64,000 nt of DNA from a virus, in IMG/VR virus record IMGVR_UViG_3300045988_182851, positions 39,491-103,490 of that record, one strand, 5' to 3'. This document shows positions 1,396 through 43,124 of the stretch, one piece after another (the stretch's first letter is position 1; every line of letters begins with the position of its first letter). The notes beneath the pieces were generated by a model. That model did no database searches and had not been told where the DNA came from. It was given only the letters and a program-made list of their open reading frames with translations. Both the position numbers and the translations under genes were made by a program.

Positions 1396-1740
1396 TTAGA
1401 TGTTCCATCTGAAAATTCAACAAGAATTTTGGTTGGATATTTTATATGTATAAAATTATTCTATTTCTAAAATTTCCTTTAATAAAGCCGCCTTTCTGAG
1501 TTTTTTTATTAATTCTTTTACATTATTATTTTTCTTTGTTCCCATTTAATGGCCTCCTTTAAAAAATTATTTAATTTATATATGACAGAAAAAAAATTAT
1601 TTTGTTATAATATCAAACAATATAGACAAAACTCTGAAGCTTTAAGTTACAAACTTATGGTTTGTTGGGATAAACCAATTTTTTGTGTCAAAAAAAAATA
1701 TTATATTTCCTATCATACATATGGTGGATTATATTTCTCG

Positions 1741-1857
1741 TTTTTATGAAAGGCCGGGCTTTAATATGAACATATAATCAAGCTATGCAGTTGAAGTTAT
1801 GTACTGAGTATAAAGTATAAGTAAATATCCTAGACCAAAGCTTCGGAGTGTATCCAA
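1741..1857 (+). mobile_element. MITE-like internal-deletion derivative of the IS200/IS605-family element at 33819..35375 (left end fused to right end)
   Basis: 1741-1800 nearly identical to the IS left end and tnpB start (tttttatgaaaggccgggctttaatatg.acat..aatcaagctatgcagttgaagtta); 1801-1857 matches the IS right end (atgctgagtacaagg.ataagt..cttcggagtgt); the upstream flank 1600-1740 is homologous to the flank of the full copy. Confidence 0.55.
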
Positions 1858-8073: not shown

Positions 8074-8127
8074 GAACTACCCGCAATCGATTTTTGTTGA
8101 ATGGAGTTTTCTTGCTATTCTTCGATA
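8074..8127 (-). repeat. R1 structured repeat, copy 1 (GAACTACyCACAACCGAC..TTGTCGG.TGGAGTTTTCTTGCTATTCTTCGATAA)
   Basis: six copies share about 85-95% identity; here it sits between the R2 promoter (8132) and the terminator (8003-8024), suggesting a stand-alone small transcript. Confidence 0.6.
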
Positions 8128-8235
8128 ATTAATATGACAGAGCTAAAATATAATTTGTCTAAAGCATAAAAAAATCGGCTTATCCCACGAAGCTTTAAGC
8201 TTCGGGGTTTTGCCGATATTATTTGATATTATAAA
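8125..8235 (-). repeat. R2 terminator-promoter cassette, copy A (also at 33685..33810 inverted)
   Basis: about 110 nt nearly identical to the reverse complement of 33685-33810; GC-rich nested hairpin atcggc..cccacgaagcttTAAagcttcgggg..gccgat, T-run, then the CTGTCATATTAAT motif. Confidence 0.6.
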
Positions 8236-8239
8236 ATCT

Positions 8240-12627: not shown

Positions 12628-12847
12628 TTTTATTTCCTTTCTTATTTATATTTTTCATTTATTAATATGACAGAATAAAAAAATATTTTAATTTTTATTC
12701 AGAAATTTAAATTATTAAAATTAATATGACAGAATTTTAAATTAAATTTTTGACATAAAAAGCATATATCATTAAATGTGCTGTTTATAATTTCAAGTAA
12801 TATCAGTAATCCTGCCGAAGTTTTAAATTACTAATTTATGGTTTGAT

Positions 12848-13125
12848 AGGAAATCTATATGTAAAAAAAATAAGCATATGATCTGATATCCAAACAGAAG
12901 TATCTGAATGTCAGAGAAAAACATAAAATACCCTGTTAACATTAATAGCTATACATGTGTTTAGCAGTTTAATGTAACAGGGTATGGATTCAATCATCTT
13001 CTATACAAAAATCAGATTATATTTAGTTTTAATGTGGTATGTCAGGATATAAATTCTAAAGTGCAAATTTAATACTATATAGGATAGCTGATAAAATTAT
13101 GCTGAGTACAAGGTATAAGTGGATT
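12848..13125 (+). mobile_element. 3' remnant of the IS200/IS605-family element (last ~35 tnpB codons plus right-end / omega-RNA-like region)
   Basis: about 80% identity to 35083-35350 (tagttttaatgtggtatgtcag, ataaaattatgctgagtacaagg.ataagtg); no upstream tnpB. Confidence 0.55.
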
Positions 13126-13276
13126 TTCAAAGGTTTAGCTTCTTAATACATTCAATACAAATATCTAAAATTTCATTTTTAATAACTTTCCATTCTTCTT
13201 CAGTTTCAATGTCATATTCTTCAAAGCCATTAGTTTCAATATTTTCGATTGTTCCTTTCTTGCTATTAAACTGCTG

Positions 13277-26568: not shown

Positions 26569-26592
26569 ATTCTCTTTCCTATCCTTGTAATT

Positions 26593-26648
26593 GAACTACC
26601 CACAACCGGCTATTGTCGGTTGTGGTTTTTTTGCTTAATTGCGATAAT
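26593..26648 (-). repeat. R1 structured repeat, copy 2 (divergent, 9 bp stem ccacaaccg/cggttgtgg)
   Basis: between the 26658 stop and the 26568 start. Confidence 0.55.
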
Positions 26649-26657
26649 ATCATTCTT

Positions 26658-27658: not shown

Positions 27659-28414
27659 CTATGAGCATAACTTCTTAAGGTTATTCCTCATACCGGCTGA
27701 CTCAAACTGGAAAACATTCTTAGTTCTTCCTTTTGCATATACTTCTTTGTATACCTTATCAGCTTTAGGACCCTCTAATGGAATATTCATTACATCAATT
27801 ACTTCTCCTGTATCTCTCTGAATCATTCTGAGTGTGTCAGTAATAATTGTAAGAGTTTTTAATCCAAGAAAATCCATTTTTAATAATCCATTAGCTTCGC
27901 ACTGAATCATATCCATTTCTGTAGTTTTAATTCCCTTTTTTCCATCTCTAATAGGAATATAATCAGTAACATCATTACTATCATAAATAATAACACCTGC
28001 GGCATGTTGTGCGTATGTCGTAAGCATACCTTCACAATGAGCTGCAATATTAAGAATAGAAATAGCATCTGGATTACTATTATATTCATCCTTTAAGAAA
28101 TCTAACAAAGAAATGCTGTCCTGAATATTAATGCCTAATTCATCAACCTTATTAGTATCTTTCATGCCAACAATATCTTCAAAATTAGTTGCTTTAGCAG
28201 GCACTTTCTTACGAATCTGATCTCCTAAAGATAAGAATTTCTTTTCATCATCATAAGCTTTCTTTCCATAATATCTTGCAGCATCTCTGATAGCACCTTT
28301 AGCCTGCTGTCTTGATTCTGTAATAATTCCAACAACAGCTTCACTACCATATTTAGCTCTTACATACTCAATTGTCTTTTCTCTTACTCCAAGAGCAAGA
28401 TCGCTATCGATATC
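27659..28414 (-). CDS. dnaE: DNA polymerase III alpha, exon 2 of the N-terminal gene (palm C-terminal part and fingers N-terminal part)
   Basis: begins DIDSDLALGVREKTIEYVRAKYG (compare DIDIDF..R.EVI.YV..KYG), ends FQFESAGMRNNLKKL then CS and TAG TGA; the ORF-track start at 28417 is a TTG inside the intron. Confidence 0.8.
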   Translation of the reverse strand, partial: DIDSDLALGVREKTIEYVRAKYGSEAVVGIITESRQQAKGAIRDAARYYGKKAYDDEKKFLSLGDQIRKKVPAKATNFEDIVGMKDTNKVDELGINIQDSISLLDFLKDEYNSNPDAISILNIAAHCEGMLTTYAQHAAGVIIYDSNDVTDYIPIRDGKKGIKTTEMDMIQCEANGLLKMDFLGLKTLTIITDTLRMIQRDTGEVIDVMNIPLEGPKADKVYKEVYAKGRTKNVFQFESAGMRNNLKKLCS

Positions 28415-29354
28415 CAAATATACCCCTACTTTCGTAGTACTTTAACACTTGTATAAGTGGGATTAGACTATATCTCAATATAATATTGTTAATATTATAT
28501 TTCAACGCACTTCCAACTGTAACCATTCTCAGTTGTACTCCTTAAAAAGGATAGTCGTTACACTTTAAAATAAATAATATTATATACGAACAATTTTTAA
28601 GTCATTCCATTTTAAATATTTATGCATTGAGGAATAACTTGCGTTATATTTTTCTTTAGCATATCGAGCTGCTGCTAATATGCTTTCAAATCTATCAATT
28701 AATATATCTCCTTTATATAATTTACAACACTTATAATTTCTTACAGGAGACATAGTTTTATAACTATCATATAAATTGTCTTTTCTAGTACACCATTCTA
28801 AATTATTCACCTTACAATTTTGTTTATTTTTGTCTTTATGATTAACTTCTGGTAGATTATAAGGATTAGGAATAAAATTCATCGCAACTAATCGATGCAA
28901 TAAATATTTTTTATTATCTAATCTTATCATCCTGTAATTCTTTTTACTATCTAAAAAAGGTTTAAGTTGTCGAATTTTCCCTTGTTTTATACTAAAAATC
29001 TTTCCATATGAAGTTATGTAATATTCGTGGTGATTTTTAATTTCTATTATTTTTTCACCTTTTTCAAGGAATGATGTAAAATTGATATAATCTATCATAA
29101 ATATACACCTCCTTATTTATATAATATTATTTATAATCTTAGCACGGTATCGCCTGCTATCCTTCAATATCTTTTATATAAAAATATTAGGACCGTAGGT
29201 TCTCTTACGAAGCTGCTTCGTCTATGGGTTAAGCTATATATCCTGTTGTGACACTTTATATAGCAGTCTTATTCAACTTCTACCGTTAGCACTTAATAAT
29301 AAAATATTAAGCACACCTCTGAGTTAGAGTCCACGCTGAACGCCCAATATATTT
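28415..29354 (-). other. group-I-like self-splicing intron (about 940 nt) interrupting dnaE between SMP and DIDSD, carrying an HNH homing endonuclease ORF
   Basis: exon 1 ends ..ATGCCT (U before the 5' splice site); the intron ends in G before GATATCGAT; joining restores the conserved ERVSMP|DIDSD; GC-richer structured segments at 29100-29350 and 28420-28580. Confidence 0.7.
28580..29098 (-). CDS. HNH homing endonuclease (HNH_3 / AP2-type, intron-encoded)
   Basis: HRLVAMNFIPNPYNLPEVNHKDKNKQNCKVNNLEWCTRKDN and an N-terminal YITSYGKIFS-type motif; RBS AAGGAGG before the ATG. Confidence 0.8.
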   Translation of the reverse strand: MIDYINFTSFLEKGEKIIEIKNHHEYYITSYGKIFSIKQGKIRQLKPFLDSKKNYRMIRLDNKKYLLHRLVAMNFIPNPYNLPEVNHKDKNKQNCKVNNLEWCTRKDNLYDSYKTMSPVRNYKCCKLYKGDILIDRFESILAAARYAKEKYNASYSSMHKYLKWNDLKIVRI

Positions 29355-31148
29355 AGGCATACTTACTCTTTCTGGATTTAAGAATCGTTCAAAAATCAGA
29401 TTATACTTAAATGGATCAATTCCGGTAATACCAAGTAAATATGTAACCAATGAACCGGCACCTGAACCTCTTCCAATGCCTATTCCAATTCCGGTATTAT
29501 AATTGTGAGCCTTAACATACTCTTTTGCACCTTCAATTGTTAAAGGTACTTCTGATAGTTTATCCATAGGTACTAATCCACAAATTCTTCCATATTCCAG
29601 GAAGTCCTTTACAATTAAATGATAATCGGCAAAGCCCATCTGAATAATAATATTAAGTTCGTATTCCATTCGTTTCTGATGTTCTTCATCCCATCCTTTT
29701 CCGTTAGGATATCTCCAATTAATTCCCTTAATTGCTTCAGATCTTAATAATTCGTTTGAGTCCTTGTTCTTATCAAATACTGGATAATGATTAGATTTTT
29801 CTGGAATATAAGCACATCTTTTTCCAATTACATTTAAGTTATTGAGTGCTTCTGCAACCTGATCATCTGTTAATATAGCTGATAAGGCCTGAGCAAGTTC
29901 GTAAGGTGTTTTTACATATAACTCTTTATCTGATTCCGACTCACTTATCTTAATAAATCTTAAAAACTTAGCTACATTACGCATATCAATACTTCTATCA
30001 GAATTATCTGCCATATGTGCATCATTAGCAGCAACTAATGGGATATTATGCTTCCTTGCTAACTGAGCTAACACAGGATATGTTCTGCTTTCCATTTCAA
30101 GCCCATGATTCTGAACTTCAATGTAATAATTACCTGCTCCAAAAATTTCCTGATAAAAAAGCATTGTCTTTTCTGCTTCAGACATTAATTCTATTGGGCT
30201 TTTCTTTAACGATTCATAATGCTGTATCTTATTTTCATGATTAATGTATTCCTCTACCTTAAGACTTATATCCTTTAACTCGGCTTTCTTAGCATTAACT
30301 AATTTTCTGACATTAGGAATTTTATCTTTAGCTTCCAGAATTTTATTATTTATCTCTTCATATTCGTTAATCAGTTTAATAAGCTCTGGATCATCATCAT
30401 TTAAACACTTCCTTGCATCTCTTAATTTTCTTGAAATCTGTGTCCTTTCTGATTTAAGTTCCTTGGAATCACGAATATTAATCAATTCATCTAAATCTGC
30501 CGATACCCTTTCAAATTCATCTTTAGCTGAAAGATATTCTTTATCATCAGGACTTATACAATCACGTATCACTAGCTCGTCTTTTTCAGTAGTATGCTGC
30601 TGTGCTTTTCTTTCTCTGTTAATCATTTTATCCAAAACATCATCTGATAATAATTGCAGAGCTGGTGCGCCCGAAACGCAAGCTGAAGTTGCTATTATAT
30701 CACCGTTAAAGTTATATTTCTTTAAATCTGATATTGTAATAACAGGCTTTCCCATTCTTTTTTCAGAAGCCTTAGAATTTAACTTATCAATAATATGCTT
30801 GCCTCTTTCTGAAGTGGCCAACATAATCATATGGCCAATCTGCTCATTTATCTTAAATGGCGGCACTTCAATATAAGCCTCTACGCCATAAATGATATTA
30901 AATGGATGTTCTTCAGTACTTATTTTCTTAGCGTAATCAATACATGTTTGCATTGCTGAAAATGATGCATGGTCCGTAACAGCAAATTTAGTATATCCTG
31001 CATTAAATGCAGCATCTAAATAACTTTTAGGTTCATCTACGGCATCAAACAAAGAGCCTCCTGGATGGTTATGTTCACACACTGTAACTCCTGATTCAAT
31101 AACCTTTTTTGTTAATTCTCCAATTTTTACATGTTCAAACATTGACAT
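29355..31148 (-). CDS. dnaE: DNA polymerase III alpha, exon 1 (PHP domain and palm) of the N-terminal gene
   Basis: [20 protein letters not shown]; [40 protein letters not shown]; RBS AAAGGAGGAAATTTAATG; about 170 aa coiled-coil insertion inside PHP. Confidence 0.85.
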
Positions 31149-31182
31149 TAAATTTCCTCCTTTATAAATTTTATAATTAATA

Positions 31183-31196
31183 CATGACAGAAAAAA
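31183..31196 (-). promoter_or_regulatory. conserved promoter-like motif (CATGACAGAAAAAA)
   Basis: about 35 nt before the dnaE exon 1 start. Confidence 0.5.
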
Positions 31197-31259
31197 TACA
31201 CCAGTTGACTAATCTCAACTGGTGTATAAATACACATTATTTAATTGTTAATTATTTTA

Positions 31260-32411
31260 TTATTCTACCTTAACAACGTCTCCTCTATCTGATGTTTCAG
31301 TAATAACAATATACTTGATTTCCATATTGTCGTTTGCAAGAGCAATTCTTGTTACATTATCTTCCTTACTTGTATCGACAATCCAATCATATCCTTCAAC
31401 TGCAGACATTATCTTTGAATCAGTAATGATTTTATCAACATACTCTCCAATCATAATTCTGTCTTCAAGTCTGATAAAATCAGCACTATTCCAACCAATT
31501 GAAACAGATTTAATATGTGAAGGGATATTAATACTATTGAGCCTCATTAATGTACCACCATTAAGAGCAATCATTTCTGCTTTAATATGATCCATTTCGA
31601 TTAATTCCTTAGTATTAGTAATTGTATCTAAATGATAATCACAATTATTGCATTCATCATAATCTCCACAATCATTTTCGCAGTCATAACCACAATCACA
31701 ATCAGGATTATAATAATTATTATCACATACCTGCTCTGTATATTCAATGACCCATGTAGGTACATTCATTGAATTTCTTACAGTAATGACATTATTTATT
31801 GGTGCGTCAAGCATTAAATAACTTGAAATATAATTCTTTGCACCATCATAAACGATAATTTCAGCATTATCAAAATATTCAGCGAAAATATCTTTTCCAT
31901 TAAAATCCTTCTTTGTTTCAAAGTGTGTATAGGAAGTCTTTAGTATCACATATTTGTCACATACACCTATAACTTCCGGCATTGGAATTGAAACTGGAAT
32001 AAGTTTCTTAAACTTATCCTCATCCGGCTTATAAGCAAATAAATCAATATAATCATCATATTCTGTTGTGTTTTCTCTAGGCAATACAGATAATAAAAGC
32101 TTACCTGGAACAGATGTAACGATACTCTTAATTACCAGTGAACCCTGCTGTGTAGCAGCAACACCATCCTTGAGTAAAATTCCGTCTTCAACTGAATATC
32201 CATCTGGAATATCTGGGACATTAGGATTGCTGATAAGTCTAAAAGCAATTGCGTTAGATGATGATATCATAACAGATATATCCTCGTTTACTTCACCGTT
32301 TTCTAAAAGACAAGCCGTTCCTACGCCATCGGTAACAGATGTAATTAAATACTGTCTGTTGTCAACCTTGTTTAATACTGTTACATTTTCTAAAATTTTG
32401 TTTTCTCTCAT
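31260..32411 (-). CDS. hypothetical protein (383 aa), tandem paralog of the 32544..33593 ORF, with a Cys/Asp-rich insert
   Basis: shared N-terminus MRENKILENVTVLNKVD and C-terminus TRIALAN..MEIK..VI.ETSDRGD..E; insert CDCGYDCENDCGDYDECNNCDYH. Confidence 0.55.
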   Translation of the reverse strand: MRENKILENVTVLNKVDNRQYLITSVTDGVGTACLLENGEVNEDISVMISSSNAIAFRLISNPNVPDIPDGYSVEDGILLKDGVAATQQGSLVIKSIVTSVPGKLLLSVLPRENTTEYDDYIDLFAYKPDEDKFKKLIPVSIPMPEVIGVCDKYVILKTSYTHFETKKDFNGKDIFAEYFDNAEIIVYDGAKNYISSYLMLDAPINNVITVRNSMNVPTWVIEYTEQVCDNNYYNPDCDCGYDCENDCGDYDECNNCDYHLDTITNTKELIEMDHIKAEMIALNGGTLMRLNSINIPSHIKSVSIGWNSADFIRLEDRIMIGEYVDKIITDSKIMSAVEGYDWIVDTSKEDNVTRIALANDNMEIKYIVITETSDRGDVVKVE

Positions 32412-32543
32412 AATGAAAAATCTCCTTTTTTTATTTTATTCAAATAAAATATGACAGAAAAATTAAAACAAAGTAGGATTAAAGCATATACATGCCTTAA
32501 TCCTACTTTTTAAATTAATTATAGAGAATTCCGTTAATATCAA

Positions 32544-33593
32544 TTACTCTATGGTTATAATGTCTCCTCTATCTCTTGTTTCAGAAATAACAAGAGTCTT
32601 TATCTCCATAGTATTTGTATTAGCAAGAGAAATTCTTGTAACATGATCCTTAGATGTAATATCCACAATTACATTATAACCTGCAAGCTCAGCAACTATC
32701 TTATCTGGGATCTTATATGTGATATCATTAATATACCACTTGCCTGAAGAAGCTTTAATAAGACTTGCGTTATATCCCTTTGAAATTGATTCTGGAACAC
32801 TGTCAATTGCTGTTGTCTTATAAAGACTTAATGAATGGCCTTCAGAAGCAACAAATCTTAATGTAATATAATCATCTTCCTTGATAACTCCGTCAGAATC
32901 GACTACTGTATCTGCTTCAATTGCGAAAATTGTTTCATTAGGTGCCTTAACAGAATCTACAGCCTTAATTGGCTCCGCAAAAGAAATATGATCAACAACT
33001 GCATCAGACATTACATCATATAACATGATTGCTGCAGCATCAAAGATATTATCTGTTTCAATAGTTCCATCTTCAAGCTTCTTATCCTTAGTATAAGTTC
33101 TTGAATATGTCATATATAACTGCATCTTATTCTCAGAAGAAGCAATAATTGTAACCTCTGGAATAGATCTTCTGATAAGCTTATTAAACTTATCTGACTC
33201 AACTGTATATGACATAATATCAAAATAGCCTTCCCTTGGCTCTCTTGGTTCTACAGATAAAATAAGTCTTCCTGCAACACCTGCAATAACATTATTAATT
33301 ACAAGCGAACCCTGTTCTGTAGCAGGGACTCCATTCTTAAGCAAAATTCCATTTTCTACAGTATATCCAGTTGGAACATCTGGAATATTAGGATCATCAA
33401 TCAACTTGTAAGCTATTGCATTATTAGCTGTAATTACTGCAGTAACCGAAGCATCAAGTGAACCATCCTCCTTGATTAACTTGGCAGTTCCTTTAATGGA
33501 ATCACCTGAACCATCAATATTAATTATCTGGTAATTCTTACGGTCTACCTTGTTTAATACTGTTACATTAGTCTTAATCTTGTTTATTCTCAT
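32544..33593 (-). CDS. hypothetical protein (349 aa), tandem paralog of the 31260..32411 ORF
   Basis: see above; promoter motif at 33636-33650. Confidence 0.55.
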   Translation of the reverse strand: MRINKIKTNVTVLNKVDRKNYQIINIDGSGDSIKGTAKLIKEDGSLDASVTAVITANNAIAYKLIDDPNIPDVPTGYTVENGILLKNGVPATEQGSLVINNVIAGVAGRLILSVEPREPREGYFDIMSYTVESDKFNKLIRRSIPEVTIIASSENKMQLYMTYSRTYTKDKKLEDGTIETDNIFDAAAIMLYDVMSDAVVDHISFAEPIKAVDSVKAPNETIFAIEADTVVDSDGVIKEDDYITLRFVASEGHSLSLYKTTAIDSVPESISKGYNASLIKASSGKWYINDITYKIPDKIVAELAGYNVIVDITSKDHVTRISLANTNTMEIKTLVISETRDRGDIITIE

Positions 33594-33684
33594 GATTAAG
33601 TCCTCCTTTTGTTTTTTATTTAATACAAATTACATATGACAGAAAAATAAAAATAAACAAAAAATTGGACTTGTTTTTTCGCAA

Positions 33685-33810
33685 ATCCTATTTTTATAAT
33701 ATCAAACAATATTGGCAAACCCCGAAGCTTCAGGCTTCGTGGGATAAGCCGATTTTTTATACTTTAAACAAAATTATATTTTAGCTCTGTCATATTAATT
33801 ATAGGTTAAA
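33685..33810 (+). repeat. R2 terminator-promoter cassette, copy B (inverted relative to copy A), with promoter CTGTCATAT on the plus strand at 33787-33795
   Basis: reverse complement nearly identical to 8125-8235; faces the IS left end and tnpB. Confidence 0.6.
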
Positions 33811-33818
33811 TCCTAAAT

Positions 33819-35375
33819 TTTTATGAAAGGCCGGGCTTTAATATGGACATAAAATCAAGCTATGCAGTTGAAGTTAAGAATATTAACAAATTGTTCAATC
33901 CAACAATTAAAATTTATAATCAGGCTGTAACTTTTTGCATCCAGGTGTTTGAAAATGAGTGGTCTGTATTAAAAGATATTAATGACTCAAAAATACAATG
34001 TGGTGTTGCAAGGAACTTAATTCATTCTACAAAGTCAAATAAAGCTAAGTATTCAGAGTTTGATAAATTGTTCCACAAAATGCCCAGCTATTGTACTACA
34101 GCAGTCATCAATGCATCTCTCGGTGTACTTAATTCTTATCATTCAAACTTACAGAACTGGTATGATGAAGGCTGCAAAGGTAATCGTCCTACATTGCAGA
34201 TTCATACCAATAAATATCCAGTCTTTTATAAAGACAACATGTATAAGTGGGCTGATACAAAAAATGCCATACTGCTCAAGCTTTTTATAAACAATGACTG
34301 GCAGTGGGTAAAGCTGCGCTTAAAACATACTGATATACAAAGTATTAAAAAGCACAGCATCAATGCAAAAATTTCTGTACCTATATTAGAAAAGAAGCAT
34401 AAGAAATGGTTTCTGCGATTTGCGTTTGAAAACAAAGCAATTTTAAATAAGACACCATTATCTAAGCAGAAAATCTTAGCAGTTGATCTGGGTATTAACA
34501 CAGATGCTACCTGTTCAGTTATGGATCATTATGGAACTGTCCTTGCAAGATGTTTTATCAATCATGCAAGTGAAAAAGACTATATTAAACATAATCTAAA
34601 CAGGATAAAAAAGTATCAGGCTGCAGGGCAAAAAGATGTGGTCCGGAAGTTATGGAGTTTAGTTAAGAATTACAATAATGAGCTTGCGTCAAAAACTGCT
34701 AATGCCATAGTGGATTATGCCAGACAATTAAATGTCGATGTTATAGTATTTGAACATCTGGATATGAAAGGCAGGAAGAGAGGATCCAAGCGCCAGTTAT
34801 TACACATGTGGAATAAGAATACTATACAGAGAATTGTCACTCATAAGGCTCATTTATCAGGTATCCGCATCAGTCATATATGTGCAAGGAACACAAGTAA
34901 GTTAGCATATGACGGTTCAGGATATGTACTAAGAGGAAAAGACGCAGGATTGCTTACATATGAACTTTGCAGATTCCAGACTGGCAAAATATATAACTGT
35001 GATTTATCTGCATCTTATAATATAGGAGCCAGATATTTTATTCGTGAAATCGAGAAATTATATACAGGGAAATCCATATGTAAAAAAATAAACATATGGT
35101 CTGATATCCAGGCGAAAGTACCTGAATGTCAAAGAAGAACACAAAATACCCTTTCAACACTAAGAGCTATACATCAATGTTTAGCAGTTTAGTGTAAAAA
35201 GGGTATGGATTCAGTCGCCTTCAATATAAAAATTGATTGTATTTAGTTTTAATGTGGTATGTCAGAGCGTAAGTTCTGATGCGCTAAGTTAAAACTGTAT
35301 AAGATGGTGGATAAAATTATGCTGAGTACAAGGCATAAGTGAATCTCCGAATCTAAAGATTCGGAGTGTGTTCAA
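33819..35375 (+). mobile_element. IS200/IS605-family element encoding TnpB only (IS1341-like), about 1.55 kb
   Basis: left end tttatgaaaggccgggc then the tnpB ATG; right-end hairpin ctccgaatc-taaa-gattcggag at 35345-35366; both ends recur in the mini copy (1741-1857) and the remnant (12848-13125). Confidence 0.7.
33843..35192 (+). CDS. tnpB: TnpB (IS200/IS605 OrfB, RuvC-like RNA-guided nuclease family)
   Basis: RuvC-I AVDLGINTDATCSV, RuvC-II VIVFEHLDM, C-terminal Cys cluster HICARNTSK...CRFQTG..YNCDLSASYNIGARYF; the only convincing plus-strand gene. Confidence 0.85.
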   Translation: MDIKSSYAVEVKNINKLFNPTIKIYNQAVTFCIQVFENEWSVLKDINDSKIQCGVARNLIHSTKSNKAKYSEFDKLFHKMPSYCTTAVINASLGVLNSYHSNLQNWYDEGCKGNRPTLQIHTNKYPVFYKDNMYKWADTKNAILLKLFINNDWQWVKLRLKHTDIQSIKKHSINAKISVPILEKKHKKWFLRFAFENKAILNKTPLSKQKILAVDLGINTDATCSVMDHYGTVLARCFINHASEKDYIKHNLNRIKKYQAAGQKDVVRKLWSLVKNYNNELASKTANAIVDYARQLNVDVIVFEHLDMKGRKRGSKRQLLHMWNKNTIQRIVTHKAHLSGIRISHICARNTSKLAYDGSGYVLRGKDAGLLTYELCRFQTGKIYNCDLSASYNIGARYFIREIEKLYTGKSICKKINIWSDIQAKVPECQRRTQNTLSTLRAIHQCLAV

Positions 35376-35381
35376 TAATTG

Positions 35382-35999
35382 TTAAAATTTATTTAAATTA
35401 ATTGATTGCTGATATTTACTTCTTTTATCATTTATTTTATATGATTTTTGCTTTTCTGTATCATACTTTTTTGCCAAAGAATCTACATATTCATCAAAAT
35501 CAGTTCTTAAATTCTGAGAATTATTATTAGCATAATCAGCTTTTTCTAATTCTTCATTTACAAGATCTGATAGTGATGTCTTAAGAACATGCTCCATTTT
35601 TTCCTTTTCAGTTTTTCTTTTTTCATTATTCTTACGAATTATATTACCGATAACTATTATCGCAATAACAATAACTATAAAAATACCTATACAAATTAAT
35701 ATACCCTTAATCGGAATATTAGTTAAAACATCTGATACGCTATTTCCAATATTTTCTGTAGCTTCTGTAGTACTTTCCGAATCTGTTTGTGAAGTATTAT
35801 ATTCGGTTCTTAAAATTGAAATTAAAATAGAAAATATAAATCTTGAAAAAATCAAGATTGTCCCCACTATACAATTACCAACTCCATTAGATACTCCTGA
35901 CTCATCATCATTTAAAACCGATTTAAGTATATTAGAAAAACCTGTAGCAACAATGATAACCCCTAAGCAGCCTAAACATGTGCTTATTACATTTAACAT
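35382..35999 (-). CDS. membrane protein (205 aa), coiled-coil C-terminus
   Basis: two long hydrophobic segments; RBS GTAAGGAG. Confidence 0.45.
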   Translation of the reverse strand: MLNVISTCLGCLGVIIVATGFSNILKSVLNDDESGVSNGVGNCIVGTILIFSRFIFSILISILRTEYNTSQTDSESTTEATENIGNSVSDVLTNIPIKGILICIGIFIVIVIAIIVIGNIIRKNNEKRKTEKEKMEHVLKTSLSDLVNEELEKADYANNNSQNLRTDFDEYVDSLAKKYDTEKQKSYKINDKRSKYQQSINLNKF

Positions 36000-36808
36000 A
36001 AAAACTCCTTACACTTAAATATACTCTAAAACTATAATTTAAAAATTAACTTAGAGTTTTAAAATAGCATTTTTAATACTTCAATATCATCATATACAAA
36101 TAAACATCGACTGAAATCCCATCTTCAGATATTTCACTGGCAACGGCATGTATTCCATCGATGAGCGTCTTATTTACTTCATTTTATTGTTCAAAATACC
36201 AGCTATAGTCATAACCTTTATTATCAATCAACACTACCCCAAAACACATCACACATCAATTACTATTCATTTGCACAGTTCTCTACTGCAGCTTCTGTCT
36301 GCTGTGTTTCAACATTCGTATTCTTAGCTGTATTTATAACACTATAACCTACCACAAACATTATTGTACTAATCCAAATAACAGCTATAATAACAACATA
36401 AATGCCATAATCATGCAAAAAATCTAACATAACCTGTCCCTCTCATTTTATTTCTTCTCTAATCTTTATTATTAAAATCCTGCCTTTTACAGGTAAGCGA
36501 GATGCTTAGGTTGAGTTTCACTATTTACTTTTATTGAAAAACAATAAAGGAAAATGTTAAAGCTGAATAATAAATTATTCTGCCTTATTATTTTTCTTCT
36601 TGTTTTCTTCCTTTTCCTTTAAAAGACTATTCTCCATCTTTACAAAAATTGATTTCTTCTTGCCAAAAGGCTTTGCTGTAATTCCCATTTGTTAAATCCT
36701 TTCTTAATTAAAATATTTTTTAAAGACATTTAATATATGACAGATTTAATTACTCATTTTTTTACATAAAAAAAGAGATGGTTTTTGCCACCTCTTTTTT
36801 AAAATAAT

Positions 36809-37372
36809 TCAAAAATATTTCGAATAAAATAAATCAACCTGATGATACAAATATTGCAAATCCTTATCGTTAAATATTAAGAAATTATAATCTTTTGATT
36901 TTTTGTATTCATCAAATTCCTCTCTTTCACTCTCTAAGCGTATTCGCAAAGTATCAGGATTATCTCCTCTTAGAAGCCCTCTTTTAATTATTTTATTTTC
37001 AGCCAAATCAACATATACACAAATCAAATTAAACAAATTATACTTATTATGCTCTTTTAACCATTTAACGCCATCGGGGTTTATAATGTATACGCATATA
37101 TTTGAAGGTAAAGCTTCTAATGCAGCACAATATTCTATTCCAGTTTTATTATTTTTTGTATAAGCTATAATTGTTTTTTCTTTTAAAACATTGCTCATTT
37201 CTTCCTTTGAAATAAATACATGTTCCACACCATTTGTCTCATATTCTCTTTTGGGCCTTGTTGTCATTGAAACAACTGAAGGAATTCCATATTTTTCATT
37301 TAATACTTTTGCGACTGTATCTTTGCCACTTGATGTCTTTCCTATAACTGCAATTATTGTCTTTTTATCCAT
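36809..37372 (-). CDS. deoxynucleoside monophosphate kinase (P-loop, T4 gp1-like)
   Basis: Walker A IAVIGKTSSGKDTVAKVL; size 187 aa; RBS AGGAGA. Confidence 0.6.
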   Translation of the reverse strand: MDKKTIIAVIGKTSSGKDTVAKVLNEKYGIPSVVSMTTRPKREYETNGVEHVFISKEEMSNVLKEKTIIAYTKNNKTGIEYCAALEALPSNICVYIINPDGVKWLKEHNKYNLFNLICVYVDLAENKIIKRGLLRGDNPDTLRIRLESEREEFDEYKKSKDYNFLIFNDKDLQYLYHQVDLFYSKYF

Positions 37373-37388
37373 ATTAAAAATCTCCTAA

Positions 37389-37445
37389 TGAACTACTCAC
37401 AACCGACTTTTGTCGGATGGAGTTTTCTTGCAATTCTTCGGTAAC
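37389..37445 (-). repeat. R1 structured repeat, copy 3
   Basis: ends 16 nt before the kinase RBS; lies in the 3'UTR of the 49 aa ORF. Confidence 0.6.
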
Positions 37446-37594
37446 TAATGCCATAAGCAATTATATAATTCATCAATGCGATTCTGGCATCTGTCAGCTT
37501 CTAATTCATTACCGGATTCCGAATACTGGTCCCTTTTAATTTCCCAATTTTGAATTTCTTTTTTTATTCTTGTATATTTACCATTTTCTTTCAT
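37445..37594 (-). CDS. hypothetical small protein (49 aa, MKENGKYTRIKKEIQNWEIK...)
   Basis: translated by hand; RBS AAAAGGAG; promoter motif at 37627-37644. Confidence 0.3.
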   Translation of the reverse strand: MKENGKYTRIKKEIQNWEIKRDQYSESGNELEADRCQNRIDELYNCLWH

Positions 37595-37626
37595 ATATTA
37601 ACTCCTTTTATCTTAAAATTTATTAA

Positions 37627-37644
37627 ATATATGACAGAAAAAAA
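37627..37644 (-). promoter_or_regulatory. conserved promoter-like motif (ATATATGACAGAAAAAAA)
   Basis: see the motif finding. Confidence 0.5.
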
Positions 37645-37691
37645 GTCCCATTTAATTAAATGGGACTGAAAATTATTTTTATGAATTAATG

Positions 37692-37988
37692 CTATTTATC
37701 ATCCATATTTTCATTAATATTATCAATATTAATGACATCATTTTTATTAGCTATTATTATATAAGATGATATTATTTTTGCAATAAATAAAGCATTAATT
37801 ACAATTAAAATAACTCCTGGGATTATGTTATTAAAATGCTTAATAACATCAAAAGCAATATCAGGAATTAATATAAAAGCTTCAATTATACAAGAAAATA
37901 TTACACTATCTATTCCTTTTCTTATGCCTACTATATATTTATCCATGATGTTCTCCTTTTTTTCTTTCCATACTAAATTACTGCACAT
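37692..37988 (-). CDS. small membrane protein (98 aa)
   Basis: two TM helices; overlaps the methyltransferase stop by 16 nt. Confidence 0.4.
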   Translation of the reverse strand: MCSNLVWKEKKENIMDKYIVGIRKGIDSVIFSCIIEAFILIPDIAFDVIKHFNNIIPGVILIVINALFIAKIISSYIIIANKNDVINIDNINENMDDK

Positions 37989-38869
37989 TGCAAATTTAAA
38001 CGGTTTATTATACTTGCTACATGCTCCTTACATTTTTCAATTAAAATGCACTTTCTTTTCTTATTAAGACACGCTTCTCCTGTTACCCCACTACCTGCAA
38101 ATTGATCTAAAACTAATTCTCCAGGTAAAGTAAAATACTCCAATAATTGTTCAAACAAAGCAACTGGTTTTTCTGTCTGGACATTCTTTAATTTATTGGG
38201 AATGGCCTGCACATTAAATTCAGTAGGCAGCATTCCATTAGCTCCACTCATAAATCTGGTAGGTACTCCATTTATAACGCCTCTTTGCTTATCTGGTCTT
38301 AATGCTCTTGGCTTACCTTTACTAAAAATCATTATGTCTTCTGTATTTTTAGCTTTTCTGCCTGTATTACTTACAAATGTACCTTTTTTCCATGCAACTT
38401 TTGTATAATACTTAAACCCTGCCTGTTCTGCCATCTTCTTAATCTCATACAAATAATCAAAATTATTTTCATTTTCTGCAGGTAAAATTTCTACTAAGAA
38501 ACTGCCTTCCTTTAATACCCTAGCCTTTTCCATAAAATCTGATAAAGAGTACTTAAAGCAATCATACTGAGCTAAATGTCTTGTTCCACCATTATTAGAT
38601 TTCTTATCATCCCATGGATGATCAGTAATTATGCAATCCATAGATTCACTTTCAAAAACAGATAAATCTCTTCCATCGCCTTCAATAAGAACTACATCAT
38701 CTGTTACATATAGTCCTTTTGATAGTTTCTTAAATTCTTTACCTAAATTTTCATAAATTCTTGCTCTGACTGACTCTTTTGGATATGAGGGATTAACAGC
38801 ATATGCTTCTTTTAGTGTAAACTGCTTTCCTGGTTTAAAAGCCGCTAACAGATTTGATAAAACACTCAT
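37973..38869 (-). CDS. beta-class DNA N6-adenine/N4-cytosine methyltransferase with an atypical catalytic motif TDHPW
   Basis: motif IV region VLIEGDGRDLSVFESESMDCIITDHPW precedes motif I VLDQFAGSGVTGEA (the IV-before-I order of beta-class enzymes); DHPW in place of DPPY. Confidence 0.7.
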   Translation of the reverse strand: MSVLSNLLAAFKPGKQFTLKEAYAVNPSYPKESVRARIYENLGKEFKKLSKGLYVTDDVVLIEGDGRDLSVFESESMDCIITDHPWDDKKSNNGGTRHLAQYDCFKYSLSDFMEKARVLKEGSFLVEILPAENENNFDYLYEIKKMAEQAGFKYYTKVAWKKGTFVSNTGRKAKNTEDIMIFSKGKPRALRPDKQRGVINGVPTRFMSGANGMLPTEFNVQAIPNKLKNVQTEKPVALFEQLLEYFTLPGELVLDQFAGSGVTGEACLNKKRKCILIEKCKEHVASIINRLNLQCAVI

Positions 38870-38882
38870 AATATATTCTCCT

Positions 38883-39749
38883 TTATTTTGTTTGATAAAG
38901 AAGATATGACAGAAAATTATTTACATTAGAATGTGAACTGTTATTTCTTATTACTAAAATATTTCTGATAACAATTATGAAAAATATAATACTCATTACG
39001 ATTAGACAAATATTTTGTAACATAACAGGCATAAAAGAGTACAATACACTACTTGCATTAACTCCAATATGAATTAAAATAGAGGACAATAAATTATCTG
39101 TTTTTATATATACATAGGCTAATATAATACCGAAAATAAATGCATAAGTGCTTTGAATAATATTAAAATGCACTAATCCAAAAACGAAAGCTGATATATA
39201 AATTGAGCTTACATCTGGTTTCTTAAAGAATTTGTTTTGCTTTATTATTTTTGTAATACCGTATCTAAATATTAATTCTTCAACAACTGGCGTAATAACA
39301 CCTGTTATTAAGAGTACTTGAAGCCAATTTCCGGTTACAGCAACATTCATCAAAGAATTATATGAATTAGAAACCAAATTATTAGGTAAGGAATCTATTA
39401 CCACAGAAGCTAAAAAATTCATAATAATGCCTGTTAAAATAAATGTCTTGACATCTTTTAATGATAATTTTGAAATAAATATGATTGATTTATTAACTTT
39501 ATATTCTTTAAGCATAACAAACCCAAGTATTATAATATCGGAAACAAATAATGCAGGCATAATTAATTCACTGAGCATACTAAGATAACTATATGAACGT
39601 AAATTACCTGTTTCTATACATACATATAAATTATCATACCATTGTGAGTCAGAAAACAATTTAAAAATAAATACACCCAATGTACATATAATTTGAGTAA
39701 TAAGAAAAACAAATACTATTCCAATCATCTTTGTAATTTGTTTAATCAT
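38883..39749 (-). CDS. CPBP-family (CAAX protease / Abi) intramembrane metalloprotease, second copy
   Basis: ITPVVEELIFRY and FVFGLVHFN motifs; six or more TM helices. Confidence 0.65.
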   Translation of the reverse strand: MIKQITKMIGIVFVFLITQIICTLGVFIFKLFSDSQWYDNLYVCIETGNLRSYSYLSMLSELIMPALFVSDIIILGFVMLKEYKVNKSIIFISKLSLKDVKTFILTGIIMNFLASVVIDSLPNNLVSNSYNSLMNVAVTGNWLQVLLITGVITPVVEELIFRYGITKIIKQNKFFKKPDVSSIYISAFVFGLVHFNIIQSTYAFIFGIILAYVYIKTDNLLSSILIHIGVNASSVLYSFMPVMLQNICLIVMSIIFFIIVIRNILVIRNNSSHSNVNNFLSYLLYQTK

Positions 39750-40036
39750 TTTTTAGTTGACCTCCATTTTGCCTTATTTTTATTTTGATATGATTTTTCA
39801 ATTTCCAAATGGTCTTTTATCTGCTGCATACAATCTTCTAATGAAGCTTTTGTTTTTGCTGTATTAATATCCTTTTGTGTTATTTGTTTTACATGCTCTT
39901 TAGCTAAATTTTCATCCGAATAATAAGTTTGTGTTGATTCACTATATTTTATTACCGCAATATTCTTTTCTTCATTTCTTGTATTAAAAGCTTTGTTTAA
40001 TTGTATTGCAATATTAAATTTTTGATTCAAGTCCAT
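39746..40036 (-). CDS. hypothetical basic protein (96 aa)
   Basis: overlaps the CPBP start by 4 nt. Confidence 0.45.
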   Translation of the reverse strand: MDLNQKFNIAIQLNKAFNTRNEEKNIAVIKYSESTQTYYSDENLAKEHVKQITQKDINTAKTKASLEDCMQQIKDHLEIEKSYQNKNKAKWRSTKK

Positions 40037-40093
40037 TATTATAATTCCTTCCTAAAAAAAAGTTTATATATATATTAATATGACGGAGTGAAA

Positions 40094-40121
40094 CAAAAAA
40101 ATAGCAGGAATTAACCTGCTA
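40094..40121 (-). terminator. bidirectional-type terminator (atagcagg/cctgctat hairpin flanked by A7 and T6)
   Basis: downstream of the helicase stop at 40155; followed by the motif variant CCGTCATAT. Confidence 0.55.
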
Positions 40122-40154
40122 TTTTTTATTATATTCAATTGTATTAAATATTGA

Positions 40155-43076
40155 TTAAGATACTGACTTCTTATTTTTAGGCTTAGTACTATACGCTGCA
40201 GCGATTTTTTTAGTATCAATTTTTGTAAGTGCTGATGAATTCTTCTTAGCTTTAACAGGAGAAGATGCATGAGAATTAGCTCTTACCTTTTTAATCTTAG
40301 CATCCTGTTCTCTTAACTTAGCAGCTTCCTTTAATGCCTTGTTTGGATCAATAGGAACATAATTAGTATTAGTTACATCAAATACTTCCTTAAGGAATGT
40401 GTTATATATTTCTCCATGTTCCTTATCTGAATAACAAACATATTGACCTGTTATAAATAATTCATCCTTTGCTCTGGTTAAGGAAACAAATAATAATCTT
40501 CTCATTTCCTCAATTTCTTTTTCATGATTAACTTTATTACGGATGCTATGCAAATGCTTGCTATCATACTTTGTAACACTGTTAAATATAACCGGCCATT
40601 CAAGTCCTTTTGATGAGTGAGCTGTTGTAAGTACAACACCTTCATAAGTCTGTTCCATTTTCTTGCAGCAATTAGTTCCAAATACTTTAAAATCCTGAAT
40701 ATACTCTAACTCAGACTGTAAATCCTCATTTGCATATACTAAATCTAAGAAATACTCATAGATTTCATCGCCTTCATCTCCCTTAAGTGCATCAAGCATA
40801 TTATGGAAGATTTGTCTCTGAGACGGAATCGCTATCATATCCATATTCATAAACTGCTGCTTTAATTTAGAGATTTCATCATTAATATCATTAAATGATA
40901 AAAGATTTAATATTTCTCCATTATATTTCGCAGCCAGATAATCTAAATAAAGCTTATCTGCTTCAGGCTGATAAAATGCATCAGCTAAAGATAATGCAGC
41001 TTTAACCTTTCCGTTTTCAGCTAATGGCATTGGATTCATCATAACCCAAGGAATGTTTGCTTTTGATAATGCGGCCCCAATAGAAACAAGTTCAGCCTTT
41101 GTATATGTAAGCACTGCAATGTCTTCTGGAATATGTTCGTTTAAATCCAACATCTCTTTAATTGTATCTACAATATACTCAATTTCTTCATCTTTGCTAT
41201 AAAAGCCCTTTACTGTTACAGGTGCACCATGATCCTTACATGGATTCATAGCTTTAATAAGTCTTTCCTTATTAAGTGCTTCTATATCAGTTGCAACCTT
41301 AAGTATTTCAGGAGTACTTCTTCTATTAACTGATAGATTAATATCTATACCTTTTATGCCTAACTTATCGAAGAAATGAATCATGTTTTCCGGAGATGTA
41401 TGTCTGAACCCATAAATACTCTGAGAATCATCACCTACAACCATTAAAGACTCAAAACATTTACAATTACATAGCTCCTTTATTGTATCCATCTGAATAT
41501 CATTAGAATCCTGAAACTCATCTACTATAATATGCTTAAAACCTAATCTTTCTAAATAACCCGGATGCGCATTGATAATGTTAAACATCATTGGTTCCTG
41601 ATCAGCAAATGTAATAAGTGAATCTTCAAGTAGCTGTTTCTGGTATTCAGAATATAAATCCATTAACTGTGTAACAGCAATACCAGTGCCCATAAATCTT
41701 GAATAACCTTTATCTCTTAAAAGTTCTGTAAGCTGATTATTTGCATCTGGAAGTGTAATATCAACATGTTCAGTTTTAATTAACTCAAAGCATTTTTCAG
41801 CACAAGCTAATGCACCTCTTAAGTTAGGTGTATCTGTCATAAAGTTCAAGTAATCGATTCCGTTAATATGATTATCAGTTAATAATTGAGTAATAATCTT
41901 ACGATTTCTTACATCATCAATTACAACAGGAGGATTTGTAAATCCCAATTCCTTATACTCAAATTTAACAATATTATAAGCAAAACTGTTAAAAGTCATT
42001 GCCTGAATATCGTCAGGACTTACAGAAAGTCCATAAGTTAAACACTTACTTGCAATCCTTGTTTTCATTTCTGCTGCACCTGCGTCTGTAAATGTTATAA
42101 ATAACATTTCTTCCGGCTTGACACCTTCAACAAACATTTGTGCTCCTCTTTCAGTAACACATTCTGTTTTACCTGCACCGGCTGTAGCAATTACCCTTGC
42201 AATTCCTTTTCTAAAATCAACTATCTGCTGCTGTTCGTCTGATAAAATAATTTTATCTCTCTTCTTAAGCGTTTTCTTTTCGAAATGTGCAGGAGTTTTT
42301 GTATAATGGCAAAGCATATTATAAGAACATGTTTTACAATCATCTTCTGTACACTGAATATGCCCCTGCTCAGATAAATTGATCTGCTTAATATAATCTA
42401 ATTCTTCTCCACAAAGGCTATCTTTACCCCATTCAACTTCTTTTTCAAATGAAACAACATTACCGCCATAGCCTGAAAAGAAATCAGCATCAGTCATACT
42501 TTTAGAAGTATCTGTGCTTTTTCTTAAGTAATAATAAGATCCTTTAATAATCTTTTTTTCACCTGGTTTAAGTAATGATTTTGCATATAAATATAATGCA
42601 TATATTTCCGGACACTTTAAAACAGATAAATCCTGTTTCTTGCCTGAGACAGTTACCACGGGCTTTGAAGCAAAAAACTTGATTGCTTCAATTTCATTTT
42701 TATTAACAGAAACAGCATCAGGTCTAATATGAATTGCATAATCCTGGCTTACAGGAATATCCTTAGCATCAACTTCAACTTCAAGTTTTCTTTTTTCACA
42801 ATATGCATATCTTGTGAGAATTTCTGTAAGACGCTTAATTCTTCCTTCATTAGTTTCCGCAGGTAAATTATTCTCTTCAACACCTTCAGACACTAAATCA
42901 TGAAATTCATTAATCTGAAACTCACCTTTTAAATAACCCATAATAATCTGCTTAATAATAATAGCATTATCATAATTGTCATTTTTCTTTGTAGTAACTT
43001 CAATTTCCTTTTTTAAGTTCTTCATAAGACGACAATGATATTTGCCTCTTAACTCTTCTGATTTTAATACTTTCAT
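40155..43076 (-). CDS. UvrD/Rep-family SF1 helicase (973 aa) with an N-terminal Cas4/RecB-like Fe-S nuclease-like domain
   Basis: C-terminal half: motif I ATAGAGKTECV, motif II HIIVDEFQDSN, motif IV VNRRST; N-terminal 280 aa: Cys cluster CTEDDCKTCSYNMLCHY (C-x4-C-x2-C-x5-C) and IRPD...EIEAIK acidic motifs. Confidence 0.7.
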   Translation of the reverse strand: MKVLKSEELRGKYHCRLMKNLKKEIEVTTKKNDNYDNAIIIKQIIMGYLKGEFQINEFHDLVSEGVEENNLPAETNEGRIKRLTEILTRYAYCEKRKLEVEVDAKDIPVSQDYAIHIRPDAVSVNKNEIEAIKFFASKPVVTVSGKKQDLSVLKCPEIYALYLYAKSLLKPGEKKIIKGSYYYLRKSTDTSKSMTDADFFSGYGGNVVSFEKEVEWGKDSLCGEELDYIKQINLSEQGHIQCTEDDCKTCSYNMLCHYTKTPAHFEKKTLKKRDKIILSDEQQQIVDFRKGIARVIATAGAGKTECVTERGAQMFVEGVKPEEMLFITFTDAGAAEMKTRIASKCLTYGLSVSPDDIQAMTFNSFAYNIVKFEYKELGFTNPPVVIDDVRNRKIITQLLTDNHINGIDYLNFMTDTPNLRGALACAEKCFELIKTEHVDITLPDANNQLTELLRDKGYSRFMGTGIAVTQLMDLYSEYQKQLLEDSLITFADQEPMMFNIINAHPGYLERLGFKHIIVDEFQDSNDIQMDTIKELCNCKCFESLMVVGDDSQSIYGFRHTSPENMIHFFDKLGIKGIDINLSVNRRSTPEILKVATDIEALNKERLIKAMNPCKDHGAPVTVKGFYSKDEEIEYIVDTIKEMLDLNEHIPEDIAVLTYTKAELVSIGAALSKANIPWVMMNPMPLAENGKVKAALSLADAFYQPEADKLYLDYLAAKYNGEILNLLSFNDINDEISKLKQQFMNMDMIAIPSQRQIFHNMLDALKGDEGDEIYEYFLDLVYANEDLQSELEYIQDFKVFGTNCCKKMEQTYEGVVLTTAHSSKGLEWPVIFNSVTKYDSKHLHSIRNKVNHEKEIEEMRRLLFVSLTRAKDELFITGQYVCYSDKEHGEIYNTFLKEVFDVTNTNYVPIDPNKALKEAAKLREQDAKIKKVRANSHASSPVKAKKNSSALTKIDTKKIAAAYSTKPKNKKSVS

Positions 43077-43107
43077 AAAATATCTCCTTTATTATTTTGA
43101 TAAAGAA

Positions 43108-43124
43108 AATATGACAGAAAAAAT
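43108..43124 (-). promoter_or_regulatory. conserved promoter-like motif (AAATATGACAGAAAAAA)
   Basis: about 30 nt before the AAAGGAGA RBS of the helicase. Confidence 0.5.

Follow-up and report, generated by a model that had tools for sequence, protein, structure and literature searches.

The element considered here occupies positions 33698-35375 of a 64,000-nt stretch of viral DNA (positions 39,491 to 103,490 of IMG/VR record IMGVR_UViG_3300045988_182851; hereafter the window). It is very probably a non-autonomous insertion sequence (IS) of the IS200/IS605 family, which carries only tnpB, begins with a left end (LE) that includes the repeat termed R2 as well as a phage-type promoter, and would be maintained by TnpB homing. 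A preliminary description of the window, made from the sequence alone, had recognized an IS200/IS605-type TnpB element, and this assignment is borne out by an open reading frame (ORF) of 449 aa (33843-35192), precise ends, a TTTAT target and the lack of a target duplication. The anatomy is that of a textbook tnpB-only IS200/IS605 element; what is new, modestly, is a phage-resident lineage in which tnpA is replaced by a phage-type promoter in the LE, together with a natural pair of phages with and without the IS. The metagenome contig ERZ1673741.7 (399,572 bp) carries window 32481-44361 at 98.2% identity, hence the source of the window is most likely a jumbo phage, and the replicon that received the insertion can be described roughly as a low-GC gut phage of ~400 kb.

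The boundaries of the insertion are given by an IS-free relative, the IMG/VR contig 3300029581_000240 (L119 at the insertion locus), which is 97-98% identical to the window phage and contains both neighbouring phage genes with protein identities of 92-98%. This contig aligns to window 39805-35376 and then immediately to 33695-29355. Its empty site consists of TTTTTTAT followed directly by TAATTATTAAAATTT (the right side is also given as TAATTATT), equivalent to window 33697 joined to 35376, and the junction reads ...AAATCCTATTTTTTAT on the left and TAATTATTAAAATTTATTT on the right. The occupied site in the window is TTTTTAT-(33698..35375)-TAATTGTT, or in wider context ...AAATCCTATTTTTAT-AATATCAAAC...GTGTGTTCAA-TAATTGTTAAAATTTATTT, where the element runs from AATATCAAAC to GTGTGTTCAA. 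As the bases flanking both junctions differ, the boundaries are exact. The inserted segment includes R2 and has neither a target-site duplication nor terminal inverted repeats. TTTAT, the presumed target-adjacent motif (TAM), stands ahead of seven of eight independent LE copies, the exception being a mini copy with GTTAT; the seven include the full, solo and partial (12784) copies, the copy at locus L005 and both L001 copies. Related elements end in TTCAA or TTCAC. The presence or absence of the element is thus polymorphic between phages that are 97-98% identical. The insertion lies between the stop codon of the phage gene 35382-35999 and the terminator of that gene and opposes phage transcription, and since gene and terminator are parted, convergent transcription across the IS is expected.

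A second insertion site is provided by six loci (L001-L004, L143 and L154) that carry a block homologous to window 33691-35377 in an unrelated context. The TnpB of this L001-type phage element is 82% identical to that of the window, and its insertion interrupts a small ORF in frame, with ...GAAACTTTTTAT to the left and TATGCTAATAG to the right of the element and TTTAT preceding it. Two different, precisely bounded insertion sites are the one indirect sign of single-strand "peel and paste" transposition. The preliminary description had offered two accounts of R2, either that the IS inserts beside R2-like sequence or that R2 and the IS move together; the first fails, as the insertion boundary lies 5' of R2 and R2 is inside the element, while the second is correct, as R2, tnpB and the right end (RE) occur as one block at this other site. 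At L005, the element and its right flank are as in the window (97.9%), and the left flank (L005:1-288 against window 33400-33697) switches exactly at TTTAT to a D2 leader (discussed below) and another gene, which is due either to rearrangement beside the IS or to a join made in assembly across the repeated LE.

The same description had taken R2 for a phage terminator-promoter cassette that was duplicated and now precedes the LE. Every sequence feature that it reported is present: R2 is an inverted, near-identical copy of 8125-8235 (33692-33802 on the plus strand is the reverse complement of 8125-8236, with 87-91% identity over ~110 nt, far beyond chance), and the nested hairpin, the T-run and the promoter motif inside R2 are all where they had been placed. 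However, the empty site of the relative lacks R2, and the supposed terminator hairpin is not a phage part but the conserved LE hairpin of the IS family, which is also found in bacterial relatives including L010. As R2 is absent from the IS-free relative, moves with tnpB, consistently has TTTAT ahead of it and contains a hairpin that belongs to the IS family, it constitutes, on these comparative grounds, the left end of the IS itself rather than a phage cassette preceding the IS. R2 copy B was not found at the same place in the IS-free relative, and therefore the promoter belongs to the IS; the proposal that tnpB is expressed from a captured phage promoter stands in so far as a phage-type motif lies upstream of the gene, but that motif is inside the element, not outside. 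Likewise, the homology between the sequence left of the IS and the mini copy involves a real mini copy (1604-1857), but it is simply homology of one LE to another.

The LE is homologous to the LEs of the mini copy, the partial copy (at 12789), the solo copy, L001, L005 and L010. Its nested hairpin consists of an outer stem (33712-33716/33748-33752, TTGGC/GCCGA) and an inner stem (33720-33728/33734-33743, CCCCGAAGC/GCTTCGTGGG), and this layout recurs with changed sequence in L006, L053, L058 and L010. Nested LE hairpins of this kind are recognized by Y1 TnpA transposases on single-stranded DNA. In L010, the closest relative that carries tnpA (a Lachnospiraceae genome; TnpB 61% identical), TTTAT is followed by AAATTAGGCGGTAAAACCACGAAGCTTTAGCTTCGAGGATGTAATGCC, which is nearly the R2 core. 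By contrast, the T-run and the CTGTCATAT promoter are missing from the bacterial relatives L006, L053 and L010, and in the phage-borne lineage they sit where the bacterial relatives have tnpA. The T-run and promoter motif are the only part of R2 that is specific to the phage lineage, and this half could have been acquired from phage sequence. The 13-mer CTGTCATATTAAT occurs in the window with up to two mismatches 22 times (8.4 expected), 18 of these on the minus strand; exact matches are also found in ordinary phage promoters at 12661 and 12720 and in the solo LE at 8128, and variants of it are present in L001-type elements. The promoter motif region at 12661-12744, just left of the partial copy at 12784, is a tandem repeat with a period of 30 nt and 2.8 copies, in which the exact CTGTCATATTAAT is present twice.

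The product of tnpB is, judged from profile and fold matches, a divergent TnpB. It scores over the cutoff for TIGR01766 (34.5 bits; cutoff 32) and also matches guided_TnpB of NCBIfam (E=1.3e-21, 77.3 bits; cutoff 100), Pfam OrfB_IS605 (E=1e-4, 22.9 bits; cutoff 30.5), the TnpB of PDB 9nzp (E=1.4e-5) and, weakly, Cas12f1-like_TNB (E=2.8e-3), the TnpB family being very large (>5800 matches). By the curated cutoffs, the profile outcome is mixed. An AlphaFold model was of moderate quality (predicted local distance difference test, pLDDT, of 73.7), and the outcome of a fold search with this model was unambiguous, the top 25 matches being all Cas12f, TnpB, Cas12g or Cas12k (E 1e-11 to ~3e-7), with Cas12f and TnpB structures matched at E=1e-11 to 1e-8. 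The RuvC residues D215, E304 and D387 are invariant in 23 sequences and aligned to the catalytic positions of PDB 9nzp. A CxxC...CxxC zinc finger is usual in the TNB domain of TnpB, though not strictly defining, and no CxxC pair was found in residues 340-390 of any of the 23 family members; because the finger is absent and this region is poorly modelled, the putative nuclease competence is read from the invariant D-E-D triad alone. The ratio of nonsynonymous to synonymous substitution rates (dN/dS) is 0.12 between the window tnpB and the L001 copy and 0.12-0.22 among phage copies, tnpB thus evolving under purifying selection.

Three other readings of the gene were considered and rejected. A type V CRISPR-Cas system lacks its adjacent repeat-spacer array, none being present in the window; a nuclease-dead repressor (TldR) disagrees with the intact RuvC triad and both intact transposon ends; and an IStron disagrees with an LE of just 145 nt and with the lack of an Rfam intron match, at gathering thresholds or at E<=5. 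The earlier claim that tnpB is the only convincing plus-strand gene is reasonable, since just one other long ORF exists on the plus strand (3162-3620), which lacks family matches and is overlapped by minus-strand ORFs.

Downstream, the preliminary description had expected an omega-RNA scaffold and a hairpin ctccgaatc-taaa-gattcggag at 35345-35366 in the RE. The hairpin is present exactly as given, its sequence resembling the inner stem of the LE, and a conserved, covarying structure over the tnpB 3' end and the RE supports the scaffold in silico. The minimum free energy of the region 35090-35395 is -96.5 kcal/mol compared with -56.8 in shuffled sequences (z=-8.3). In an alignment of seven relatives, down to 54% TnpB identity, 91% of the cells of a 48-pair consensus are paired, against 36-41% when the partners are slid, and 24 of the 48 pairs show changes on both sides (2-7 in slid controls); the observed covariation score was reached by none of 500 shuffles, and a second alignment agrees. 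Against Rfam, the whole window had no match at gathering thresholds, and a relaxed search of 33600-35500 (E<=5) gave no meaningful match; no omega-RNA family described so far accounts for this RNA. In position and character, the predicted RNA matches a TnpB omega-RNA. The omega-RNA (reRNA) of IS605 overlaps the tnpB 3' end and the RE and takes its guide from the flank (PMC10055086), and the predicted RNA of the window element has the same layout.

Within 1.25 Mb of fetched loci, the putative guide TAATTGTTAAAATTTA of the right flank, preceded by TTTAT, was confined to the empty site (L119/L120), where it has one mismatch (G6A) at position 6. No TAM-adjacent self target of the guide exists in the window, since the guide in the occupied window is preceded by TTCAA and not by TTTAT. 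Across the same fetched loci, the guide of the full L001 copy gave a single match with three mismatches and nothing convincing, while TAM plus guide of the partial copies in the window (two) and in L146 (one), and of the relative's version of the 12784 copy, had no target.

The features of the element and of its decayed copies are listed in Table 1.

Table 1. Positions of the element, its parts and its decayed copies in the window.
Feature	Position	Strand	Basis or remark
Whole inserted element, tnpA-less, IS200/IS605 family	33698..35375 (1678 bp)	+	Absent from L119
TTTAT, target site and presumed TAM, flank directly 5' of LE	33693..33697	+	Empty site in L119
LE	33698..33842 (145 nt)	+	Inside insertion; R2 part is 33698-33802
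Nested LE hairpin	33712..33752	+	DNA fold
T6 run behind LE hairpin	33753..33758	+	With hairpin resembles intrinsic terminator (terminator-like match)
Phage-type promoter motif CTGTCATATTAAT, exact 13-mer	33787..33799	+	44 nt upstream of tnpB ATG
tnpB coding sequence, 449 aa	33843..35192 (stop included)	+	ORF with profile and fold matches
Omega-RNA-like scaffold, tnpB 3' end and RE	35146..35375	+	Fold and covariation; 5' limit uncertain, could be near 35071-35100
RE subterminal hairpin	35345..35366	+	Equivalents before RE end in L006, L010, L053, L058
TTCAA, final bases of element, presumed right cleavage site	35371..35375	+	Empty-site boundary
Right flank, putative guide TAATTGTTAAAATTTA	35376..35391	+	Covers stop codon of phage gene 35382-35999
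Phage's own terminator of gene 35382-35999	33667..33688	-	Terminator-like match; directly after gene in L119
Solo LE (R2 copy A)	8125..8235	-	TTTAT at 8231-8235; co-directional with phage genes, then D2 leader
Partial copy	12784..13155 (without TTTAT: 12789-13155)	+	TTTAT, 5' part of LE hairpin, last ~115 nt of tnpB, omega-RNA/RE
Mini copy	1604..1857 (without GTTAT: 1609-1857)	+	GTTAT, diverged LE, 36 nt from the start of tnpB, final ~58 nt of RE

Relatives of TnpB with 41-61% identity are found in Lachnospiraceae, Oscillospiraceae and Erysipelotrichaceae, where they are multi-copy in genomes, and a Y1 tnpA adjoins tnpB in 47 of 80 bacterial loci. A tblastn search of the window with two family TnpAs gave nothing below E=7, hence the phage copy is a non-autonomous derivative. 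Single-protein scans of GTDB genomes and IMG/VR returned no matches, and it was the alignment-based scans that found the TnpB relatives; a scan of IMG/VR with an R2 18-mer gave nine loci, of which two were real (both on the relative's contig) and seven were chance matches without LE features, and an RE 18-mer scan of metagenomes gave 27 loci, five of them real. In L010, a small ORF lies between tnpA and tnpB (L010:2800-2980). The metagenome contigs L006-L009 encode 441-aa TnpB relatives (two proteins, 63% identical to the window TnpB) in a shared neighbourhood of an integrase, small ORFs, a 389-aa ORF, tnpB and 687-aa and 406-aa ORFs, which suggests an integrative element with a fixed tnpB-only copy.

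On the reading of the element as a homing, tnpB-only IS, the phage-type promoter in the LE would transcribe tnpB and the omega-RNA during infection, and the omega-RNA would be processed out of the tnpB transcript. TnpB with its omega-RNA would then cut TTTAT followed by the right-flank sequence, that is, a vacant site left after excision or present in a co-infecting IS-free phage, and recombinational repair from the occupied copy would restore or spread the element. Moves to new TTTAT sites would need TnpA in trans, from a related IS in a Clostridia host. The homing mechanism of TnpB was described for bacterial IS605 elements (PMC10055086), and non-restorative homing into co-infecting phages or plasmids was proposed in principle (PMC13565253).

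Three further copies in the window are older decayed insertions of the same IS family. The solo LE breaks off directly behind the promoter motif, where a D2 leader follows, and would most simply have arisen by deletion of the sequence separating the IS promoter from an identical promoter motif of the phage. In the partial copy at 12784-13155, which the preliminary description does not mention, a GGGA(A/T)A microhomology marks the junction of the LE hairpin with tnpB position ~35071; the tnpB remnant contains a stop codon, 44 of 48 scaffold pairs are kept, the terminal RE hairpin is lost and substitutions fall equally on paired and unpaired columns. This copy is probably a relic, although not with certainty. 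The mini copy joins ~60 nt of the left part to ~58 nt of the right end, and both of its hairpins are degenerate. As the IS-free relative has all three (solo LE 98%, partial copy 94%, mini copy 94%; flanks 94-99%), they predate the split of the two phages. The synteny of the relative (L124:1-443) stops exactly at 13155/13156, the right end of the partial copy, and the sequence right of 13155 is unrelated in the two phages, hence the "guide" of the partial copy differs between them. A second fragment that keeps just the guide-RNA region occurs in a 139.5-kb phage contig (OGZV01000027.1, L146:3128-3300), where TTTAT directly precedes the last 167 nt of the element (omega-RNA/RE only, 93% identical) and the right flank is another one.

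The three plus-strand IS copies in the window (flanks 1583-1608, 12720-12788 and 33634-33697) are each situated upstream of a phage promoter motif on the minus strand, at a distance of 8-52 nt. Their shared orientation and position could reflect tolerated sites or a strand bias of single-strand transposition. GC skew was considered as a cause of the shared orientation and was uninformative; the skew in the window tracks the coding strand and, for this reason, says nothing on the direction of replication.

Several points weigh against the interpretation as a homing IS. The scores for guided_TnpB and OrfB_IS605 are under the curated thresholds, and the zinc finger is missing family-wide in a region where the model has a pLDDT <50. 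The mismatch at guide position 6 of the relative's empty site might prevent cutting, and that site would fit precise excision as well as a history without insertion. tnpB is convergent with a phage gene, and as the transcript of that gene must run across the IS, tnpB could be silenced.

A more far-reaching version, which we regard as a tentative and rather doubtful possibility, holds that a phage-adapted TnpB lineage, independent of TnpA, serves as an RNA-guided homing drive among jumbo phages that infect the same cell. Here, tnpA would have been swapped for a phage-timed promoter, empty sites with TTTAT and guide would be cut, and the leftovers would have been co-opted, the solo LE (8125-8235) as a terminator-promoter cassette and the omega-RNA fragments as extra guide genes.

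It is unlikely that TnpB was instead domesticated, that is, kept for the benefit of the phage in RNA-guided cutting of rival phages or host DNA, or in regulation, with the partial omega-RNA copies as extra guides. The dN/dS of 0.12, the phage-type promoter and the lack of tnpA would fit such a role, as would the occupation of the same site in the phage variants L132, L135 and L005, with element divergence of up to 8%. Fragments in which the omega-RNA region is retained recur (12784-13155, and TTTAT with 167 nt of RE in L146), and the survival of 44 of 48 scaffold pairs in the former points in the same direction. However, the hairpins of both ends are intact and the element has exact IS ends at another site too, which shows recent transposon behaviour, and the guide of the full copy is its own flank, which matches only the empty site. 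The guides of the partial copies have no TAM-adjacent target in any fetched locus, and these copies evolve slightly faster than their flanks (94% versus 96-98% identity); at 12784-13155, the even spread of substitutions over paired and unpaired columns and the destroyed terminal hairpin also argue against retention as a guide gene.

Very improbable is the view that R2 is a native, duplicated phage terminator-promoter cassette, behind which the IS inserted, or whose like it prefers, so as to borrow an outside promoter. R2 copy A does occupy a normal intergenic position of the phage, from a gene end to a D2-type leader; its layout of hairpin, T-run, ~25-28 nt and CTGTCATATT mirrors the phage cassettes at 44907 and 58935, and the promoter 13-mer occurs phage-wide. 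Against this stand the IS-free relative without R2 at the site and with the insertion boundary 5' of R2, the movement of R2 with tnpB to another site, the hairpin half and TTTAT that are common to bacterial IS relatives, including one with tnpA, and the fact that all three plus-strand copies begin with R2 right after TTTAT or GTTAT; for this site, the empty site already refutes the view. That the element is an inert relic, an old insertion neither expressed nor mobile and simply undeleted so far, draws on the lack of tnpA, the antisense placement, in which a phage gene is transcribed towards the element, and several plainly dead copies in the same genome, but is hardly credible in view of the full-length ORF with its invariant catalytic triad, the dN/dS of 0.12-0.22 between phage copies, the two intact hairpins, omega-RNA pairs kept by compensatory changes and the polymorphism between 97-98% identical phages.

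Among known systems, the homing IS proposed here is close to IS608 of Helicobacter pylori and ISDra2 of Deinococcus radiodurans, which likewise have no inverted repeats and no target duplication, insert 3' of a short target sequence (TTAC for IS608, TTGAT for ISDra2, TTTAT here) and have subterminal hairpins ~15-19 nt from the left and ~9-10 nt from the right end. On the right, IS608 finishes with TCAA, as does the window element. Both of these elements have TnpA and TnpB, whereas the window element is without tnpA and has an LE with the T-run and phage-type promoter instead; its TnpB is larger (449 aa), only distantly similar and without the CxxC zinc finger, and its replicon is a phage. The full copy resembles IS1341-type elements in being tnpB-only and in needing TnpA in trans. 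The mini copy is a shell of LE and RE, as are palindrome-associated transposable elements (PATEs), but unlike PATEs the short copies look dead and not mobilizable because their hairpins are degenerate. The tnpA-tnpB elements at L010, L053 and L058 share the TnpB family, the nested LE hairpin and an RE hairpin followed by TTCAA or TTCAC, and differ by their Y1 tnpA and by the lack of a T-run and of a CTGTCATAT promoter.

The homing endonucleases of T-even phages, free-standing or borne by introns (Seg, Mob, I-TevI), cut the unoccupied allele of a co-infecting relative and are copied in by repair (PMC13565253). A similar population behaviour is expected for the window element, but recognition would be by RNA guide and TAM rather than by protein, and the element also has transposon ends; the window holds, in addition, an HNH_3 ORF (28580-29098) that the relative lacks. 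TnpB genes were reported in some members of phage groups, for example the epsilon crAss-like phages (PMC11054128). In the passages found, they are named transposase genes only, with no mention of ends, an empty site, a TAM or a guide RNA (PMC11054128), all of which are defined for the window element.

TnpB homing is established for bacterial IS605, and its extension to co-infecting phages was proposed in principle only. The locus is a natural test case, as two 97-98% identical phages differ by the insertion and the exact ends, TAM and guide are at hand; a one-base target difference and an HNH insertion that is polymorphic between the same phages add to it for comparison. It also illustrates that what looks like a phage regulatory cassette can be the end of an IS, and that such an end might turn into one; for annotation, R2-like repeats in this phage group are to be read as IS left ends.

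The surrounding window is AT-rich (24-34% GC), with nearly all genes on the minus strand, PHROG matches to phage helicases, a RecJ-like exonuclease and a split DNA polymerase III alpha, and no tRNA genes; among INPHARED phages, no megablast match was found for window 30000-40000. Many minus-strand genes have the motif TTTTCTGTCATAT ~28 nt upstream of their ribosome-binding sites. Immediately left of the insertion are two adjacent paralogous genes (31260-32411 and 32544-33593; 383 and 349 aa), which are alike at the N- and C-termini and have no family matches. The DNA polymerase III alpha gene is present as pieces at 29307-31148, 27659-28417 and 20295-21980, the C-terminal piece being 5.7 kb further away, beyond six other ORFs. 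It is interrupted by a segment of ~940 bp (28415-29354) that encodes an HNH_3/NUMOD4 homing-endonuclease-like protein, with the HNH ORF on the minus strand; in L119, this segment is absent and 29355 is joined straight to 28414, the rest being 98% identical. A group I intron signature was not detected around this insertion.

A conserved intergenic motif of ~55 nt, termed D2 (TTATCGAAGAATAGCAAGAAAACTCCATCCGACAATAGTCGGTTGTGAGTAGTTCAT), occurs six times in the window with the minus strand as the functional one (8069-8131, 26588-26650, 37385-37447, 44907-44969, 46983-47045 and 58935-58997), and further copies are present at L005:200-275 and L001:7855-7935. Four of the six window copies form a leader just before a gene start, and several lie directly behind a CTGTCATAT promoter. 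D2 has a hairpin with little covariation and no Rfam match, and it may be a protein-binding or leader element.

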